The notes under the pieces: generated by a model
The model's database searches: none
Told to the model about the DNA's origin: nothing
The model's input: the letters and a program-made list of their open reading frames with translations, nothing else
Origin: an uncultured Bacilli bacterium
Lineage (GTDB): Bacteria; Bacillota_I; Bacilli_A; RF39; UBA660
Direction: 5' to 3'
NCBI GenBank assembly: GCA_947623925.1
Contig: CANQID010000001.1
Coordinates: forward strand, 130,684-194,683
DNA: 64,000 bases
Shown: positions 5,522 to 64,000 of the stretch, one piece after another
Layout: each line of letters begins with the position of its first letter
How positions within the stretch are numbered: position 1 is the stretch's first letter
Program-made: the position numbers and the translations under genes

Positions 5522-6135
5522 ATGAAAAATAAAAAGGGTATTTATCCCCTTTATTACTCTTGCCTGGCTATTAATGTAATTAACTTTACGTCTTAGGTCG
5601 AGTTGGATTTCCCCTATTCTTACAATATGTTACCATATTTGCGGTTCCCCTTTAAAAGAATAGATATATAGTCACCTATTATATTACTCGATTGCCACTT
5701 AGTACGCACTGCAATCCTACATTAATGTCACTCTAGGAGATTTCCTCCCCAATTGATTTATTAATAATTCTTTTTTGCAGATACAATTTCAAAATGCGAT
5801 TTTTAAATAATTTTAGCTATAAATTACTTAAAATTGCTCATTTATTCCAAATATCCACTCAAGACAAGCTACACTACTCATAACTTTCGCCACAAAGTAG
5901 GTTCAAGCCTAAGTCGTAATAAGTCAGAGTGCTTACCACAAAAATAGGTCTCCATGAGAAATGGGTCGGTAAACATATGCCATTATGTGCGCCCATAACT
6001 CTACCTTTCAGCATCCACCCCAAACTGGGCGTAAGAAGCAAACACCAAAAGTTTCACAGATGTGCTCTTTAACGGATTTTTAGCCCCGTCTTCCTAATAA
6101 ATCATATTGACTAGAATAATGTGCCAATCAATATA
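5522..6135 (-). ncRNA. ole: large structured ncRNA, best explained as OLE (ornate, large, extremophilic) RNA
   Basis: ~610 nt with no ORF in any frame and visibly higher GC than all surroundings; own promoter; followed by a 4-TM protein inside a nusB-xseA-xseB operon (published OLE/oapA synteny); lacks RNase P, tmRNA and group II intron signature motifs. Confidence 0.6.
5524..5552 (-). terminator. weak terminator-like hairpin at the 3' end of the large ncRNA
   Basis: minus strand aaaggg-gataaata-cccttt followed by TTATTTTT, just upstream of the oapA RBS; short stem. Confidence 0.35.
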
Positions 6136-6140
6136 TATAA

Positions 6141-6169
6141 ATTGTATCAGATTTACACTTTTTTGTCAA
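6141..6169 (-). promoter_or_regulatory. sigma-A type promoter for the large ncRNA
   Basis: minus strand TTGACA - 17 nt - TACAAT with TGa extended -10. Confidence 0.7.
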
Positions 6170-15050: not shown

Positions 15051-15222
15051 AAAAAAGCCTAAGGATGTAGGTGTTCGAAACGATAAACCCTGTCTACCAG
15101 GTGGGCATCACATTACAAACTTTAGGATTCCTTTATAAAAGGTCTTCAACACCGTCTGTAAATTAGATTCCCAATCGTTTACTTGTAGGTTTTTCTTAAC
15201 AAACACTTTTTTATCCTTAGGT
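15051..15222 (-). ncRNA. ssrS: candidate 6S RNA
   Basis: ~170-nt ORF-free GC-richer block; 5' ACCUAAGGAU..GUGUUUG..AAACGAU pairs with 3' AUCGUUU-CGAACAC..AUCCUUAGG giving a long interrupted rod, then a U-run; extended -10 promoter; sits upstream of tcdA, as I recall for B. subtilis bsrA. Confidence 0.5.
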
Positions 15223-15228
15223 AATTTT

Positions 15229-44144: not shown

Positions 44145-44295
44145 TTTTAAATTCATGATTTAGCGCCAGGTCTAAATAGATGACGAGGATAACAGTTATC
44201 GAAAATTCGGCGGATACTGTTACGGTTGAATATGATCGTTAGATATATAACAAAAAGTAAAATCAAAATTACTACAAAATATATATCACATATTA
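44145..44295 (+). promoter_or_regulatory. glmS ribozyme (GlcN6P-dependent self-cleaving riboswitch)
   Basis: core AGCGCCAGG...GACGAGGAT...GTTATCGAAAATTCGGCGGATAC matches the conserved glmS ribozyme core; directly upstream of glmS. Confidence 0.9.
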
Positions 44296-44310
44296 TAAAG
44301 GAGAAATTTT

Positions 44311-46119
44311 ATGTGTGGTATTGTTGGTTATATTGGAAAAAAATATAACGCTTTAAATGTCCTTATTGAAGGACTTGAACGCCTTGAATATAGAGGATAT
44401 GATTCGGCTGGTATAGCCTATATTGATAATAATAAATTAAATATAATTAAAGAAAAAGGAAAAATAAAAAATTTAAAGTCAAAAATAAATTTTGATATAA
44501 AATCAAATTTAGGAATTGGGCATACAAGATGGGCAACTCATGGTATTGCGAACAAAGAAAATAGTCATCCACATAAAGTAGGAAAAATAACTATTGTACA
44601 TAATGGTATAATAGAAAATTATGAGCAATTAAAAGAAAATCTAAAAAACAGTGTAAATTTTAAATCTGAAACAGATACAGAAGTTGCGTGTGCATTATTA
44701 AATAAATTATATGAAGAAACGAATAATATGAATGAAACTCTAATAATGTTTCAAAAACAAGTAAAAGGTGCATATGCAATGGGTATAATATGTGATGATG
44801 ATTATAATACAATGTATGCAATTAAAAACAAAAGCCCACTTATTATAGGAACAGGTAAAGATGAAAATTACATTGCATCTGATGTCCCTGCTATACTTAA
44901 ATTCACAAATAAATATATAATATTAGATGATGGTGAATTTGCAAAAATAAATAGTGATGAAATCACTTGTTATAAAGGAAATAATATTATTAAAAAAGAA
45001 GAAAAAATATTTGAAGGAACTGCTGAAGATATAGAAAAAAATGGATATGAACATTTCATGTTAAAAGAAATAAATGAACAACCAGAAGTTTTTAAAAAAA
45101 CTGTTTCTGAATATATTTCAAATGGTATTGATAGTCTAATTGAAAAAATGCCTGATTTTTCAAAATATAAAAATATAAAAATAGTTGCATGTGGAAGTGC
45201 AATGCACGCTGGATGTATTGGTAAAAATTTAATAGAAGAATTTGCAAATATTCCTGTAGATGTTGAAATTGCAAGTGAATTTAGGTATAAAAAACTTTTT
45301 ATTGATAAAGAAACTTTAGTAATTTTAATTTCACAGTCAGGTGAAACTGCAGATACATTAGCAGCACTTGAAATAGCAAAAGAAAAAGGTTGTGACACTT
45401 TAGGTATTATAAATGTATATGGAAGTAGTATTGCTAGAAATTCTGATGTAGTATTATATACAAAAGCAGGAAGTGAAATAGCAGTTGCAACTACTAAAGC
45501 ATATTTTGCTCAAGTAGCATTACTCTCTTTAATAGCTTTAAAAATTGCTAATTCTAATAATTTAGTAAAATCAGATGAATTAAAAGAAATATTGTCAGAA
45601 ATGAGAAATCTACCTATCAAAATTCAAAATTTATTGGATAGAAAAAATGAATTTAAAAATATTGCAGAAAAGATTTATAAAAACAATGACATTTTCTTCA
45701 TAGGAAGAGATGTAGATTATTCACTTTCTATGGAAGGTTCTCTTAAACTTAAAGAAATTTCTTATATTAATAGTCAAGCATATGCAGCAGGAGAATTAAA
45801 ACATGGTACTATTTCACTAATAGAAGATGGGACTCCTGTTATATCAATTGTAACAAAAGAAAGCATTGCAGAAAAAACTATAAGTAATATTAAAGAAGTT
45901 AAATCTAGAGGAGCAAATGTAATTTTAGTTACAACTGAAAAACTAGATAAACAATCTGATTTTTATGATTATAAAATAGTTGTTCCTAATACTCATAAAT
46001 TATTACAACCTTTACTTGCTATTGTGCCTTTACAATTATTATCATACGAAATAGCCAAATTGAGAGATTGTAATATAGATAAACCTAAAAATTTAGCTAA
46101 ATCAGTTACAGTAGAATAA
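44311..46119 (+). CDS. glmS: glutamine--fructose-6-phosphate aminotransferase
   Basis: MCGIVGY N-terminal nucleophile, two SIS domains, C-terminal KSVTVE. Confidence 0.97.
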   Translation: MCGIVGYIGKKYNALNVLIEGLERLEYRGYDSAGIAYIDNNKLNIIKEKGKIKNLKSKINFDIKSNLGIGHTRWATHGIANKENSHPHKVGKITIVHNGIIENYEQLKENLKNSVNFKSETDTEVACALLNKLYEETNNMNETLIMFQKQVKGAYAMGIICDDDYNTMYAIKNKSPLIIGTGKDENYIASDVPAILKFTNKYIILDDGEFAKINSDEITCYKGNNIIKKEEKIFEGTAEDIEKNGYEHFMLKEINEQPEVFKKTVSEYISNGIDSLIEKMPDFSKYKNIKIVACGSAMHAGCIGKNLIEEFANIPVDVEIASEFRYKKLFIDKETLVILISQSGETADTLAALEIAKEKGCDTLGIINVYGSSIARNSDVVLYTKAGSEIAVATTKAYFAQVALLSLIALKIANSNNLVKSDELKEILSEMRNLPIKIQNLLDRKNEFKNIAEKIYKNNDIFFIGRDVDYSLSMEGSLKLKEISYINSQAYAAGELKHGTISLIEDGTPVISIVTKESIAEKTISNIKEVKSRGANVILVTTEKLDKQSDFYDYKIVVPNTHKLLQPLLAIVPLQLLSYEIAKLRDCNIDKPKNLAKSVTVE

Positions 46120-60053: not shown

Positions 60054-60190
60054 TTATTTTATTTCTTCTAACATTTTTTCTTTTAGTTTGTCTATATCCG
60101 TGAAAAATAAATTTGTACCTCTCTTTTTTAATCCTATCGTATTTTTAAATAAACTTTTAATTTCGTTTTGCAAATCTGTTGGAACTTTTA
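60054..60190 (-). other. open frame that may be the frameshifted C-terminal part of the toxin
   Basis: shifted frame reads WSTLKVPTDLQNEIKSLFKNTIGLKKRGTNLFFTDIDKLKEKMLEEIK* starting at the toxin stop codon; the join lies at CAC-TAA-AAG. Confidence 0.35.
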
Positions 60191-60520
60191 GTGTACTCCA
60201 TCAACAGTATGAACATGGTCTATATATTTTTCTAGTGTTAGAAAAGCATTTTGTAGTAATATAGCAGCATCTTCATCGGCAATTTTTCTAATAATTATAG
60301 TATTACAAAACCCATACTTCTCGACTTTTTTATCAATAATCTTTTGATATTTATCAACTTTAGAACTAATAGGAATAAACCATAAAATATTTTTATCTTT
60401 AATTGTAAAATAAGTAGGCCTCTTCTTTCCTTTTTCGTGATTTTGCATTAAATTTTCATCATTAACGACATCAAAATATTCATCTTTGATGTGATATAAA
60501 TAGCCTGTTCTTATTTCCAT
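60188..60520 (-). CDS. type III toxin-antitoxin toxin, ToxN/AbiQ-like endoribonuclease (possibly truncated)
   Basis: MEIRTGYLYHIKDEYFDVV...KKRPTYFTIKDKNILWFIPISSKVDKY fits the ToxN/AbiQ N-terminal pattern (FY.I...Y..YL ... RP ... [FY].[AI]P[LI][ST]S.K) as I recall it; GGAG RBS 9 nt before ATG 60520; preceded by terminator and tandem repeats. Confidence 0.65.
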   Translation of the reverse strand: MEIRTGYLYHIKDEYFDVVNDENLMQNHEKGKKRPTYFTIKDKNILWFIPISSKVDKYQKIIDKKVEKYGFCNTIIIRKIADEDAAILLQNAFLTLEKYIDHVHTVDGVH

Positions 60521-60548
60521 TGTCATCAACTCCATAAAAAGTATACCA

Positions 60549-60587
60549 TAAAGCAAAAGAAAACTCCATCTTACGATGAAGTTTTTC
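60549..60587 (-). terminator. terminator between the repeat array and the toxin gene
   Basis: minus strand AAAACTTCATC-GTAA-GATGGAGTTTT (11 bp, one G-U) followed by CTTTTGCTTT. Confidence 0.8.
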
Positions 60588-60697
60588 TACATTTTCAACC
60601 AGGATCATTTATTAGTCGCACCACCTGGAAGCGAAAAACATTGTCGCCTGGAATCATTTATTATTCGCACCATCCAGAAGCGAAAAACATTTTCACA
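60588..60697 (-). ncRNA. candidate type III antitoxin RNA: 2 full tandem repeats (48 and 49 nt) plus a ~10-nt partial copy
   Basis: 60599-60646 ccaggatcatttattagtcgcaccacctggaagcgaaaaacattgtcg and 60647-60695 cctggaatcatttattattcgcaccatccagaagcgaaaaacattttca; each copy holds a 5-bp inverted repeat; no ORF. Confidence 0.7.
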
Positions 60698-60716
60698 CTT
60701 TCTAAAGTGTAATATA

Positions 60717-60745
60717 CATATACTATATTTTTATGAAAATGTCAA
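60717..60745 (-). promoter_or_regulatory. candidate promoter of the repeat-toxin unit
   Basis: minus strand TTGACA - 17 nt - TATATG (imperfect -10); followed by the palindrome ACACTTT-AG-AAAGTGT at the predicted 5' end. Confidence 0.5.
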
Positions 60746-60782: not shown

Positions 60783-63413
60783 TCATTTATCTTGTTTTTC
60801 TTTGATTGCAGCTTGTGCAGCAGCAAGTCTAGCAAGTGGTACTCTAAATGGAGAGCAAGATACATAGTTAAGTCCTACTCTATGGCAGAATTCAATACTT
60901 GAAGCTTCTCCACCATGCTCACCACATATACCTAATGATATATCAGGTCTAACAGTTTTAGCTTTTTGTGCTGCAATTTTAATTAATTCTCCAACACCAT
61001 TTTGATCTAATTTAGCAAATGGATCTGATTCAAAAATCTTTTTATCATAATAATCAGATAAAAATTTTGATGCATCATCTCTTGAGAATCCATATGTCAT
61101 TTGTGTTAAGTCATTTGTACCAAAACTGAAGAATTCAGCAACTTCTGCAATTTTATCAGCAGTAATTGCAGCTCTTGGAATTTCTATCATAGTACCAACT
61201 TTATATTTCATATTAACATTTGCTTCTTTTATGATACTATCAGCAGTTGTACAAACAATTTTTTTAACATATTCTAATTCTTTAACATCACCAACAAGTG
61301 GAATCATAATTTCAGGTGTTACATTCATACCTTCCTTATTTACATTAATTGCTGCTTCAATAACTGCTCTAGTTTGCATTTTAGCAATTTCAGGATAAGT
61401 TATAGCTAAACGGCAACCTCTATGTCCCATCATTGGATTAAATTCTTTTAAAGATGAAACTCTATCTTTTAAACTTTCAAAGCTCATATTTAATGATTCA
61501 GCAAGTTCTTTTATTTCTTCATCTGTATGAGGTAAGAATTCATGTAGTGGTGGATCAAGATATCTAATGACTACAGGATCTCCTTCCATAACTTTGAATA
61601 ATTGTTCAAAATCTTCTCTTTGATATGGAAGTATTTTTTCAAGTGCAGCTTCTCTTGATTCTACACTATCAGCACATATCATTTTTCTAAAGTTAAATAT
61701 TCTTTCACTTTCAAAGAACATATGCTCTGTTCTACAAAGTCCAATACCTTCAGCACCAAATTTACGAGCTTGTTTAGCATCTCTTGGTGTATCAGCATTA
61801 GTTCTTATTTTTAATTTTCTAGTATTATCAGCCCAAGACATAAATGTACTGAAATCTCCACTTATTTCTGGTTCTACAGTTTTTATTTCTTCACCATATA
61901 CATTACCTGTTGAGCCATCTACTGAAATATAATCTCCTTCTTTAAATACTTGACCATCTTTTGTTTTAATTGTTTTAGCATCTTCATCAATAACAAGTTC
62001 ACCACAACCACAAACACAGCATCTACCCATTCCACGAGCAACTACTGCAGCATGGCTTGTCATTCCTCCTCTTATTGTAAGTATTCCATTAGCATCATTC
62101 ATACCTTGAATATCTTCTGGAGATGTTTCAAGTCTTACAAGTATAGTTTCTTCTCCTCTTGCTTTTGCAGCAGACACATCTTCAGCACTGAAATATATTC
62201 TACCTGTTCCTGCTCCTGGAGATGCAGCAAGTCCTTTAGCAACTACTTTTGCTTTTTTTAAAGCTTCATTATCAAAATTTGGATGTAATAATTGATCTAA
62301 TTGTTTTGGTTCTACTTTAAGTAAAGCTTCTTCTTTAGTAATCATTCCTTCATTTACTAAATCTACTGCTATTTTAATTGCAGCTGGAGCTGTTCTTTTA
62401 CCATTTCTTGTTTGCAACATAAATAACTTACCTTTTTCAATAGTAAATTCCATATCTTGCATATCTTTATAGTGATTTTCAAGTGTTTTAGCAATATTTT
62501 TAAATTGCTCATAAACTTCAGGCATAACATCTTTTAAAGTTGATATTGGTTGAGGTGTTCTAATACCAGCAACAACATCTTCTCCTTGTGCATTAATTAA
62601 ATATTCACCATATAGTTTATTTTCTCCTGTTGATGGGTTACGAGTAAATGCAACTCCTGTACCACTATCATCACCCATATTACCATAAACCATCTCTTGA
62701 ACATTTACAGCAGTACCCCAACTATTTGGAATATCATTCATTCTTCTATAAATATTTGCTCTTTCATTATTCCAAGATCTAAATACTGCAGTTACTGCTT
62801 CAATTAATTGAGTTTTTGGTTCTTGTGGGAAATCTTCCCCTGCAATACTTTTATATACCTCTTTAAATTTCATTGCAACTTCATACATATCATCTGCATT
62901 TAAATCAGTGTCGTATTTAGCTCCTTTTTCTTCTTTAATTTGATCTAATAATCTTTCAAATGAAGATTTTGGATAACCTTTTACAACATCTGCAAACATT
63001 TGAATGAATCTTCTATATGAATCATATGCAAATCTTTTATTATTTGTTGCAGTTGCTAAACCTTCTGTTACTTTATCATTAAGTCCAAGGTTTAAAATTG
63101 TATCCATCATACCTGGCATTGATGCTCTTGCACCACTTCTAACTGAAACTAATAATGGATTTGAATAATCTCCAAATACTTTACCAGTTGTTTTTTCAAG
63201 ACTACTTAAGTGTTCGAAAATTTCTTTTTCAACTTCTTCACTTATTGTTTCATTATCATCATAGTATTTATTACATGCTTCTGTTGATACTGTAAATCCT
63301 TTTGGAACTGGAAGACCTATACCAACCATTTCAGCAAGGTTTGCTCCCTTTCCACCAAGGATATTTCTCATATCTTTATTTCCTTCTTTAAAATCATATA
63401 CAAATTTAGTCAT
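60783..63413 (-). CDS. ppdK: pyruvate, phosphate dikinase
   Basis: 876 aa, ATP-grasp N-terminus (GGKGANLAEM), phosphohistidine motif GGMTSHAAVVARG, PEP-utilising C-terminal domain GICGEHGG. Confidence 0.97.
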   Translation of the reverse strand: MTKFVYDFKEGNKDMRNILGGKGANLAEMVGIGLPVPKGFTVSTEACNKYYDDNETISEEVEKEIFEHLSSLEKTTGKVFGDYSNPLLVSVRSGARASMPGMMDTILNLGLNDKVTEGLATATNNKRFAYDSYRRFIQMFADVVKGYPKSSFERLLDQIKEEKGAKYDTDLNADDMYEVAMKFKEVYKSIAGEDFPQEPKTQLIEAVTAVFRSWNNERANIYRRMNDIPNSWGTAVNVQEMVYGNMGDDSGTGVAFTRNPSTGENKLYGEYLINAQGEDVVAGIRTPQPISTLKDVMPEVYEQFKNIAKTLENHYKDMQDMEFTIEKGKLFMLQTRNGKRTAPAAIKIAVDLVNEGMITKEEALLKVEPKQLDQLLHPNFDNEALKKAKVVAKGLAASPGAGTGRIYFSAEDVSAAKARGEETILVRLETSPEDIQGMNDANGILTIRGGMTSHAAVVARGMGRCCVCGCGELVIDEDAKTIKTKDGQVFKEGDYISVDGSTGNVYGEEIKTVEPEISGDFSTFMSWADNTRKLKIRTNADTPRDAKQARKFGAEGIGLCRTEHMFFESERIFNFRKMICADSVESREAALEKILPYQREDFEQLFKVMEGDPVVIRYLDPPLHEFLPHTDEEIKELAESLNMSFESLKDRVSSLKEFNPMMGHRGCRLAITYPEIAKMQTRAVIEAAINVNKEGMNVTPEIMIPLVGDVKELEYVKKIVCTTADSIIKEANVNMKYKVGTMIEIPRAAITADKIAEVAEFFSFGTNDLTQMTYGFSRDDASKFLSDYYDKKIFESDPFAKLDQNGVGELIKIAAQKAKTVRPDISLGICGEHGGEASSIEFCHRVGLNYVSCSPFRVPLARLAAAQAAIKEKQDK

Positions 63414-63476: not shown

Positions 63477-64000
63477 TCATTTTTTTGCTCTTGGATGTGA
63501 ATTTAGATATACTTGTCTTAACTTTTCATTTGAAATATGTGTATATATTGATGTTGTTGATAAACTATCATGTCCTAACAATTCCTTTACACTCATCAAA
63601 TCAGCTCCTGCATCTAGTAAGTGTGTTGCGAATGTATGTCTTAGTGTATGGGGTGAAATATTATATTTTATTGAACTTTCTTTTAATGTTTTTTCTACAA
63701 TCATTTGTATTCCTCTTACACTTAATTTATTACCATTTTTATTTAATAATAAATATTCATTGTTATTTATAGATAATTTACTCCTTGAATTATTTATATA
63801 ATTATTTAATAAATCTTTACATTGCTTTCCAAATAAAACGATTCTTTCTTTAGATCCTTTTCCAAGTATTTTAATTTCTCTTTCATTAAAATTTATATCG
63901 TTTATTTTTATATTTGAAAGTTCACTTACTCTTATACCAGTTGAATATAAAAGTTCTAAAATAAGTGCATTTCTAAGACCTAATACTTCTTCTTTATTTG
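63477..64000 (-). CDS. tyrosine recombinase XerC/XerD family (N-terminus beyond the window edge)
   Basis: frame stays open to the window end: ...ELLYSTGIRVSEL...ILGKGSKERIV...HTLRHTFATHLL..GADL..V.ELLGH..L.TT.IYTH; the track ORF shows only the part after an internal Met. Confidence 0.85.
   Translation of the reverse strand, partial: NKEEVLGLRNALILELLYSTGIRVSELSNIKINDINFNEREIKILGKGSKERIVLFGKQCKDLLNNYINNSRSKLSINNNEYLLLNKNGNKLSVRGIQMIVEKTLKESSIKYNISPHTLRHTFATHLLDAGADLMSVKELLGHDSLSTTSIYTHISNEKLRQVYLNSHPRAKK

Follow-up and report, generated by a model that had tools for sequence, protein, structure and literature searches.

The closest described relative of the locus analysed here is the CptIN module of Eubacterium rectale (PDB 4RMO; Rao et al. 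2015, PMC4627078), a type III toxin-antitoxin (TA) system that pairs an RNA antitoxin, CptI, with a protein toxin, CptN. The E. rectale CptI unit is 45 nucleotides (nt) long, AAGUUUACCACUGACCGAUAUGUGGUAUAUAAAUGGUCGGGUUGA, and folds as an H-type pseudoknot with an A-rich second loop (L2); cleavage follows the last A of the unit, and AAG opens the next one (PMC4627078). In this work, we analysed a locus on the minus strand of a 64,000-nt stretch of contig CANQID010000001.1 from an uncultured Bacilli bacterium (this whole stretch is hereafter the window). An initial annotation of the window had described a type III TA-like locus with a ToxN/AbiQ-like toxin. We conclude that the locus is most probably a type III TA module of the known CptIN family that inserted at the end of ppdK, with a 1-nt deletion in its toxin gene, cptN, and with its RNA antitoxin repeats, cptI, intact.

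A previous survey of 33 CptIN loci reported repeats of 40-48 nt in 1.9-3.4 copies (Blower et al. 2012, Table 2, PMC3401426), and the CptI RNAs could not be aligned in that study (Blower et al. 2012, PMC3401426). The repeats of cptI have since been described as nearly identical (PMC12283969). In Escherichia coli, CptIN was found to be toxic, to be rescued by its cognate antitoxin only and to stabilise plasmids, and it gave no abortive infection against the coliphages tested (PMC3401426, PMC4627078). In ToxIN and AbiQ (Pectobacterium atrosepticum, Bacillus thuringiensis and Lactococcus) the logic is the same: repeats and a terminator accompany an endoribonuclease, which is inhibited by a pseudoknotted RNA that it processes itself. 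However, ToxI units are 34-36 nt long, occur in up to 5.5 copies and form 3:3 triangular complexes, and these systems have no sequence-level match to the window toxin; abortive infection is established for ToxIN and not for CptIN. TenpIN of Photorhabdus luminescens is similar to the window locus in having about two longer repeats, and many tenpIN loci are reported to have repeats that are not identical (PMC12283969). Its toxin nevertheless belongs to another family, and the window toxin matches the CptIN model and not TenpN.

The window locus is like CptIN in its chromosomal location and in the order of its parts, which are a promoter, about two tandem repeats, a terminator and a toxin gene. 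The likeness extends to the RNA unit, which has a single-stranded 5' tail AA(N)GUUU, a first stem (S1), a short first loop (L1), a second stem (S2), then L2, which is A-rich and includes AUAAAUG, and finally a 3' end that reads ...GGUUGA. Truncated toxin genes beside full arrays are also already on record for the CptIN family. Unlike the E. rectale system, the subfamily to which the window locus belongs is found in uncultured gut Bacilli at the 3' end of ppdK, and the window copy of its toxin gene is a pseudogene.

The toxin gene belongs to the CptIN family

The open reading frame (ORF) downstream of the repeats begins MEIRTGYLYH... and is interrupted after 110 codons. We compared it with NCBIfam NF047359, an equivalog model named "type III toxin-antitoxin system CptIN family toxin" that has a cut-off of 90 bits. 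The frame-repaired protein of 155 amino acids (aa) scored 155.3 bits over profile positions 1-150. The 110-aa ORF alone scored 127.4 bits (profile positions 1-106), and the downstream 45-aa frame matched profile positions 112-150. The repaired protein also aligned over its full length with E. rectale CptN in PDB 4RMO (E = 5.6e-22; residues 3-149 aligned with 2-152). The ORF thus matches a type III toxin family with and without the 3' extension that the initial annotation had considered, and these matches, together with the CptI-type pseudoknot described below, bear out its CptIN-like call. Neither the window ORF nor its intact relatives had a match in Pfam or PADLOC, and no ToxN/AbiQ model of Pfam was matched, so we narrow the earlier ToxN/AbiQ-like label to CptIN. 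As neither resource has a model that detects CptN, their silence is not evidence against the CptIN assignment.

A search of homolog databases found 2449 proteins, and the best 120 listed were 152-174 aa long, mostly 155, with identities of up to 95%. No record was returned when the exact 110-aa product was looked up. At the positions that align with the active site of E. rectale CptN, Ser52-Ser53-Lys54 is invariant in the 82 relatives that we compared, and the other equivalents in the window protein are Asp82 (50/82 relatives), Ala85 and His104 (81/82). The Ser-Ser motif is therefore retained, and the remaining positions are substituted in comparison to E. rectale CptN (Ser-Ser-Arg, Asp81, Ser85, Tyr104), with Lys in place of Arg, Ala in place of Ser85 and His in place of Tyr104.

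Covariation supports a pseudoknot in each antitoxin unit

The region upstream of the toxin gene contains two repeat units in tandem, with a period of 49 nt and 80% identity (39/49), followed by an 8-nt partial third copy (Table 1). The initial annotation had correctly seen two tandem copies of about 80% identity but gave their lengths as 49 and 48 nt, and we find that both units have 49 nt. A 24-base core of the unit occurs twice in the window (0 expected). Tandem Repeats Finder with a minimum score of 30 reported no array here, since about 2.2 copies with 80% identity are too few and too divergent for it; direct-repeat and pattern searches recovered it. The copy number is within the published CptIN range, and the unit length lies just above the published 40-48 nt and exceeds the 45 nt of the E. 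rectale unit (units of a sister group have 51-52 nt).

The unit boundaries were placed where those of the solved CptI lie: that RNA is cut after ...GA, and by analogy cleavage of the window RNA would be expected after GA and before (A/C)AAUG. The partial third copy gives a third GA|AAAUG junction, which by the same analogy would be needed for release of unit 2, and it is kept as GAAAATG in nearly all relatives. One of the related sequences (which are designated here by L numbers), the independent 5.2-kb contig L086, is 100% identical to the window and ends at 60590, within the partial third copy. This end lies directly 3' of the cptI array and is consistent with assembler breaks at this repeat.

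Each window unit follows one plan: a 5' tail (A/C)AAUGUUU, S1, a short linker, S2, an L2 loop with AUAAAUG and a 3' end GGCGA or GGUUGA. It matches part by part the E. rectale CptI segments AAGUUU, ACCAC, GUGGU, AUAUAAAUG and GGUUGA. The initial annotation had noted one of the two helices, a 5-base pair (bp) internal helix that it described as paired in both units with the register shifted by one. The pairing holds in both units, and the shift in register is not needed: in common alignment columns, the pairs of this helix (S2) are C-G, U-A, G-C, G-C and A-U in unit 1 and C-G, C-G, A-U, G-C and G-C in unit 2, so that three S2 pairs differ between the units by double changes. The 5' arm of S2 lies inside the S1 loop, and S1 and S2 together therefore make a pseudoknot.

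To assess this fold across the subfamily, we collected the units of about 80 related loci and obtained a set of 55 distinct sequences. In this set, 96.2% of cells form standard pairs, in comparison to 30-53% when the partners are slid, and S2 is paired in 99.6% of cells. Changes on both sides were seen for 6 of the 10 pseudoknot pairs, and the observed covariation score was reached by 0 of 500 shuffles. These comparative data provide evolutionary support for an H-type pseudoknot in each unit. A nested minimum free energy fold of the whole leader, with helices mixing both units, was rejected in favour of the per-unit pseudoknot, given this covariation and the solved homolog. The window sequences are themselves typical of the set, as its unit 1 is the commonest unit-1 variant (14 loci) and its unit 2 the commonest unit-2 variant (45 loci).

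Rfam had no match at gathering threshold over the array; the only hits were chance matches below threshold, most of them at the hairpin of the terminator. Because Rfam has no model for the RNA half of the module, annotation overlooks the two-unit array together with its hairpin and terminator, and the earlier statement that the antitoxin RNA would escape annotation was right in this respect.

Expression signals surround the repeats

The promoter that the initial annotation had read as TTGACA-17-TATATG is present upstream of the array (Table 1). Among 72 related loci, the -35 box is TTGACA in 68 and the -10 box is TATATT in 65, and TATATG occurs in the window only. The window hexamer has lost its final T by a T-to-G change, and this is why a consensus promoter scan did not list the site. 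At the predicted transcript start, the previously noted 7-bp palindrome indeed folds as a hairpin (-5.9 kcal/mol, z = -3.2). A hairpin formed at this place in 19 of 19 leader variants tested, with stems of differing sequence (GCAC/GUGU, GCUAC/GUGGU, GCCAU/AUGGU, GUCAC/GUGAU and CAGAUGAG/CUCAUC). A conserved 5' hairpin before the array and two conserved, distinct unit types (see below) set the window subfamily apart from CptIN as previously described.

Table 1. Features of the cptIN locus and its junctions with ppdK. Positions are those of the window, read on its minus strand.
Feature	Position	Strand	Sequence or remarks
Left copy of duplicated ppdK 3'-end sequence	60818-60798	minus	GCACAAGCTGCAATCAAAGAA; inside the present ppdK frame; left junction
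Sigma-70-type promoter	TTGACA 60745-60740; TATATG 60722-60717	minus	17-nt spacer; -10 box damaged
5' hairpin	60710-60695	minus	ACACTTT-AG-AAAGTGT; at predicted transcript start, directly 5' of first predicted GA|AAAUG processing site
cptI unit 1	60692-60644	minus	49 nt; AAAUGUUUUUCGCUUCUGGAUGGUGCGAAUAAUAAAUGAUUCCAGGCGA; S1 UUCGC/GCGAA, S2 CUGGA/UCCAG
cptI unit 2	60643-60595	minus	49 nt; CAAUGUUUUUCGCUUCCAGGUGGUGCGACUAAUAAAUGAUCCUGGUUGA; S1 U(U)CGC/GCGA(C), S2 CCAGG/CCUGG
Partial third copy	60594-60587	minus	8 nt; AAATGTAG / AAAUGUAG
Intrinsic terminator	60585-60551 (stem part 60585-60560)	minus	11-bp stem, GUAA loop, U-rich tail; between array and toxin gene
Ribosome-binding site	60533-60530	minus	GGAG; 9 nt upstream of ATG at 60520
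cptN toxin pseudogene	60520-60054	minus	First frame 60520-60191, 110 codons, stop 60190-60188; other frame, 45 codons, stop 60056-60054
Relic of ancestral ppdK 3' end	59984-59946	minus	VQASIKEGMDKE and stop; includes right copy of duplicated sequence, 59984-59964; right junction
Hairpin over relic stop codon	59952-59923	minus	z = -3.25 (containing 76-nt stretch); same sequence follows intact ppdK in L072

Between the array and the toxin gene, a terminator scan found one such site against 0.2 expected, and the stem folds at -14.9 kcal/mol (z = -5.3), confirming the terminator with an 11-bp stem and a U-rich tail that had been proposed. Its stem sequences vary among relatives and the pairing is kept. 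The GGAG ribosome-binding site (RBS) is kept in most relatives. For the earlier claim of a GGAG RBS followed by an ORF, the RBS and the start hold, and the continuity of the ORF does not.

The window copy of the toxin gene is disrupted

In place of the intact frame of about 150-160 aa that is expected for CptIN, the window toxin is cut to 110 of 155 aa by a 1-nt deletion, CCA to CA at 60193/60192; in relatives the frame is intact at 155 aa. In a DNA alignment with four related loci, the relatives read GTACCACTA (GTA CCA CTA, Val-Pro-Leu) and the window reads GTA-CACTA. The deletion shifts the frame at the codon for Pro110, which is present in 82 of 82 relatives. Programmed frameshifting was rejected as an explanation, since none of the 82 relative copies that we compared shares the break and each reads this codon in frame. 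A second private change lies at codon 94 (60241-60239), which is CTA (Leu) in the window and Pro in 82 of 82 relatives and in E. rectale CptN. Arg4, Leu94 and Thr128 are the window residues found in less than 5% of the 82 relative copies. The initial annotation had implied an intact module, a view that the frameshift (found also in a second contig, as described below), the Pro94Leu change and the damaged -10 box do not support.

The truncation drops about 45 residues and, in a low-confidence AlphaFold2 model, is predicted to remove two C-terminal helices. In E. rectale CptN, the corresponding region contributes Val129, Met132 and Phe139 to RNA interface 1, the pocket for the RNA 5' tail (PMC4627078). 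We infer that the window toxin has lost its function. A reading in which the 110-aa CptN is an active, perhaps attenuated, ribonuclease and the locus is still a TA pair could appeal to the score of this ORF, which passes the NCBIfam cut-off (127 bits), to its Ser-Ser-Lys motif and to the short CptN genes beside full arrays that were noted in 2012. We regard it as highly improbable, given the loss of about 45 residues, including the two tentatively modelled helices and the region equivalent to that part of RNA interface 1, and given a Pro94Leu change at a residue that is invariant in relatives and also Pro in E. rectale CptN. A further frameshift near codon 8 of the gene in the second contig also argues against selection on the ORF.

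This second contig, L085 (ERZ27249187, 55.5 kb), comes from another assembly record. Over 7.2 kb it has 99.875% identity to the window, and it carries the same 1-nt deletion and the same TATATG. The two differ at 9 positions and so are not the same sequence. All of these differences fall within 60451-60581 (from the terminator to about toxin codon 23), with 0 in the other ~7.1 kb; 7 of them are transitions, and L085 lacks the 2 nt at 60497-60498. Neutral drift cannot explain such clustering. It probably arose when a patch of another cptIN allele was recombined in, or when strains were mixed in assembly.

The L085 contig bears directly on whether the frameshift is a sequencing or assembly error in a module that is intact and functional. 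Such an error would fit a single-base lesion in a set composed throughout of metagenome assemblies, and the array, terminator and RBS are undamaged. Yet the identical deletion is present in a contig that is not identical to the window, and the gene has an additional 2-nt deletion there. The lesion site is a CC dinucleotide rather than a long homopolymer, and two further private changes are found at otherwise invariant positions, Pro94Leu (0/82) and the T-to-G change in the -10 box (1/72). On these grounds, we consider an error very unlikely.

Several points nevertheless weigh against our reading of the locus as a CptIN module with a dead toxin. The structure model (AlphaFold2, from a 15-sequence alignment with relatives 83-94% identical to the first) had a pLDDT (predicted local distance difference test) score of 49, which is too poor for use, and it was not used for a fold search. 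The 110-aa product retains Ser52-Ser53-Lys54, Asp82 and His104, so residual activity is conceivable from its sequence, and other short genes for CptN, whose activity is not known, were listed by Blower et al. 2012 (PMC3401426). The substitutions of Lys for Arg, His for Tyr104 and Ala for Ser85 with respect to E. rectale mean that the chemistry of the window toxin is presumed from its relationship to CptN. All the sequences are metagenome assemblies, and the 9 clustered differences in L085 could reflect strain mixing. Finally, transcription, processing and toxicity at the window locus are predicted.

Disrupted toxin genes were also found among relatives, with in-frame stops in L010, L034, L037 and L064 and a frameshift in the second copy in L014. 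Toxin decay is therefore recurrent in this subfamily.

The module lies in the last codons of ppdK

The end of ppdK is at 60783, which leaves 38 nt to the -35 box, and the gene is co-directional with the module. A sequence from the ppdK 3' end flanks the module as an imperfect 21-nt duplication (16/21 matches), and a relic of the ancestral ppdK end lies beyond the toxin gene (Table 1). L072 has an empty site (L072:1270-1440), at which PpdK ends with AQAAIKEGMNKE and a stop codon and runs directly into the DNA that follows the relic in the window. From this empty site and the ppdK relic after the module, we conclude that about 0.8 kb was inserted in the last ppdK codons, which supports the earlier proposal of an insertion between ppdK and an ATP-binding cassette (ABC) exporter. 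L072 has a cptIN copy of its own on the other side of the ABC exporter. The hairpin that overlaps the stop codon of the relic lacks a T-run and is probably the original ppdK terminator, which now lies downstream of the cptN pseudogene.

The same arrangement recurs in relatives: ppdK is upstream of cptIN in 39 of the relative loci compared, and a recognisable ppdK relic is present 3' of the toxin gene in roughly 20. The 3' end of ppdK is thus a recurrent cptIN site, or hot spot, in a large clade of uncultured gut Bacilli. Alleles at this site do not follow the divergence of the neighbouring gene. The near-conspecific L076 has a PpdK that is 98.5% identical to that of the window and a CptN that is only 76% identical; its cptIN allele at this site differs from that of the window, having 51-nt units and CCGGG in S2. 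Nucleotide identity between the window and L076 is 96-99% through most of ppdK and falls to 62-92% at the left edge of the module (just downstream of 60798-60818). Conversely, L005-L007 have CptN proteins 96-97% identical to the window copy beside PpdK proteins that are 66-77% identical (L007: PpdK 68%, CptN 97%). From the discordant divergence of PpdK and CptN and the fall in identity at the module edge, we conclude that cptIN alleles have been exchanged at the ppdK site.

The cptIN module encodes no recombinase. Directly upstream of ppdK, we observed a gene for a XerC/XerD-type tyrosine recombinase of 313 aa (window 63477-64000, minus strand; L085:2996-3937), which is probably a housekeeping gene. 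Upstream of ppdK in L001 (L001:1-2921) are genes for TraC-like and TraG-like ATPases and for a CI-type repressor, which suggests a conjugative or integrative element beside the same hot spot.

Exchange of alleles at this site among close relatives raises a further interpretation, in which the window array is an orphan antitoxin that is kept and expressed, possibly by read-through from ppdK, and neutralises CptN from incoming modules (anti-addiction). Both window units are the commonest variants of the clade and would match the commonest circulating toxin alleles. In addition, the co-directional ppdK leaves only about 38 nt between its stop and the -35 box, with no terminator-like site between, and L010, L034 and L037 likewise retain a two-unit array beside a disrupted toxin gene. 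However, the -10 box of the module itself is damaged, and processing of the array requires active CptN. The few private changes suggest recent inactivation, in which case intact repeats are expected by default without selection. We therefore consider retention as an orphan antitoxin quite unlikely and prefer to view the locus as a decaying CptIN module.

Relatives share the architecture and have two types of unit

In a scan of one genome per species, CptN relatives were found in 367 genomes. Nearly all are uncultured gut metagenome-assembled genomes labelled Bacilli, Tenericutes, Mycoplasma or Erysipelotrichaceae, and their sources include rabbit, Hadza human, mouse and ruminant samples. There was no match in 50,697 phage records that would indicate a phage origin. 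Fifteen plasmids carry distant homologs only, all at less than 60% identity (about 30-35% in the 12 listed), and IMG/VR has one contig with a 73% identical relative.

Exactly two units are present in 75 of the 82 related loci, as repeats on the same strand directly upstream of the toxin gene, and the -35 and -10 boxes, 5' hairpin, terminator and RBS are conserved across relatives. Variants of this architecture were also observed. The spacer from the terminator to the toxin ATG is ~65-70 nt longer in L038, L050-L053, L057, L062, L067 and L069, and in this subgroup it contains another promoter-like site (TTGACG...TATAAT), which would provide the toxin gene with its own promoter. Tandem cptIN pairs occur in L011, L014 and L028, with the second copy ~840-960 nt downstream of the first.

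In 49 of the 75 two-unit loci, which are counted at species level, S2 is CUGGA in unit 1 and CCAGG in unit 2. Across these 49 loci, identity is 95% for unit 1 and 99% for unit 2, and the two units of a locus are only 79% identical to each other. The near-identity of repeats expected for CptIN is thus absent, both here and in the window with its 80% identical units. The unit types differ by three compensatory changes of S2 pairs and in their 3' tails, and the presence of two conserved types is a variant feature of this subfamily. One explanation would be that the two CptI types are specialised antitoxins, either in an asymmetric 2:2 ring of one RNA of each type with two CptN or through differing affinity or stability, and not redundant copies. 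We offer this as an unlikely possibility; if it were true, an array beside a dead toxin, like that of the window, might be retained in an anti-addiction role, directed at cptIN alleles that arrive at the ppdK hot spot.

Other structured RNAs in the window

Three further RNAs were observed elsewhere in the window. An ornate large extremophilic (OLE) RNA at 5548-6143 (minus strand) is full-length, scoring 388.9 bits over model positions 1-616, and its host appears to be an uncultured gut Bacilli genome. A glmS ribozyme at 44151-44297 (plus strand) lies directly upstream of a 602-aa ORF (44311-46119), and a 6S RNA is present at 15052-15226 (minus strand).

Discussion

The mechanism of CptIN is already known and the NCBI model already names its toxin; the window copy is a new, decayed member of the family, which belongs to it by descent and is pseudogenised. 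By homology, the promoter of an intact module of this kind would give a short non-coding transcript carrying the 5' hairpin and two 49-nt CptI units, each of which would fold as an H-type pseudoknot of stems S1 and S2 with an A-rich loop. The intrinsic terminator would let only read-through transcripts extend to cptN, and because of this limit the antitoxin RNA would be in excess over the toxin. The CptN endoribonuclease would be expected to cut the array 5' of each (A/C)AAUG, directly after the GA, and then to stay in an inactive protein-RNA ring with the pseudoknots so released. If the supply of RNA stopped, free CptN would degrade cellular RNA.

Any biological role of the module can be proposed with caution. 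The initial annotation had assumed phage defence; the CptIN loci tested in E. coli stabilised plasmids and aborted infection by no tested coliphage (PMC3401426, PMC4627078), and phage defence by the window module is plausible.

In the window, the toxin half of the module would be dead, and the antitoxin units still have the commonest wild-type sequences. A dead toxin beside an intact array is what would be expected of an addiction module in decay, since the toxin has to go first and only then can the antitoxin drift. In a genome annotation, such a locus would appear as a frameshifted hypothetical gene or a CptIN-family pseudogene beside unannotated DNA.

These findings leave the known CptIN mechanism unchanged. 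Their value for type III TA biology lies more in the relatives than in the decayed window copy, as the relatives provide the first covariation-grade alignment of the CptI pseudoknot and reveal both the pair of distinct unit types and the ppdK hot spot with its exchange of alleles. The window itself is an example of module death, in which the toxin has gone first and the antitoxin is yet intact.

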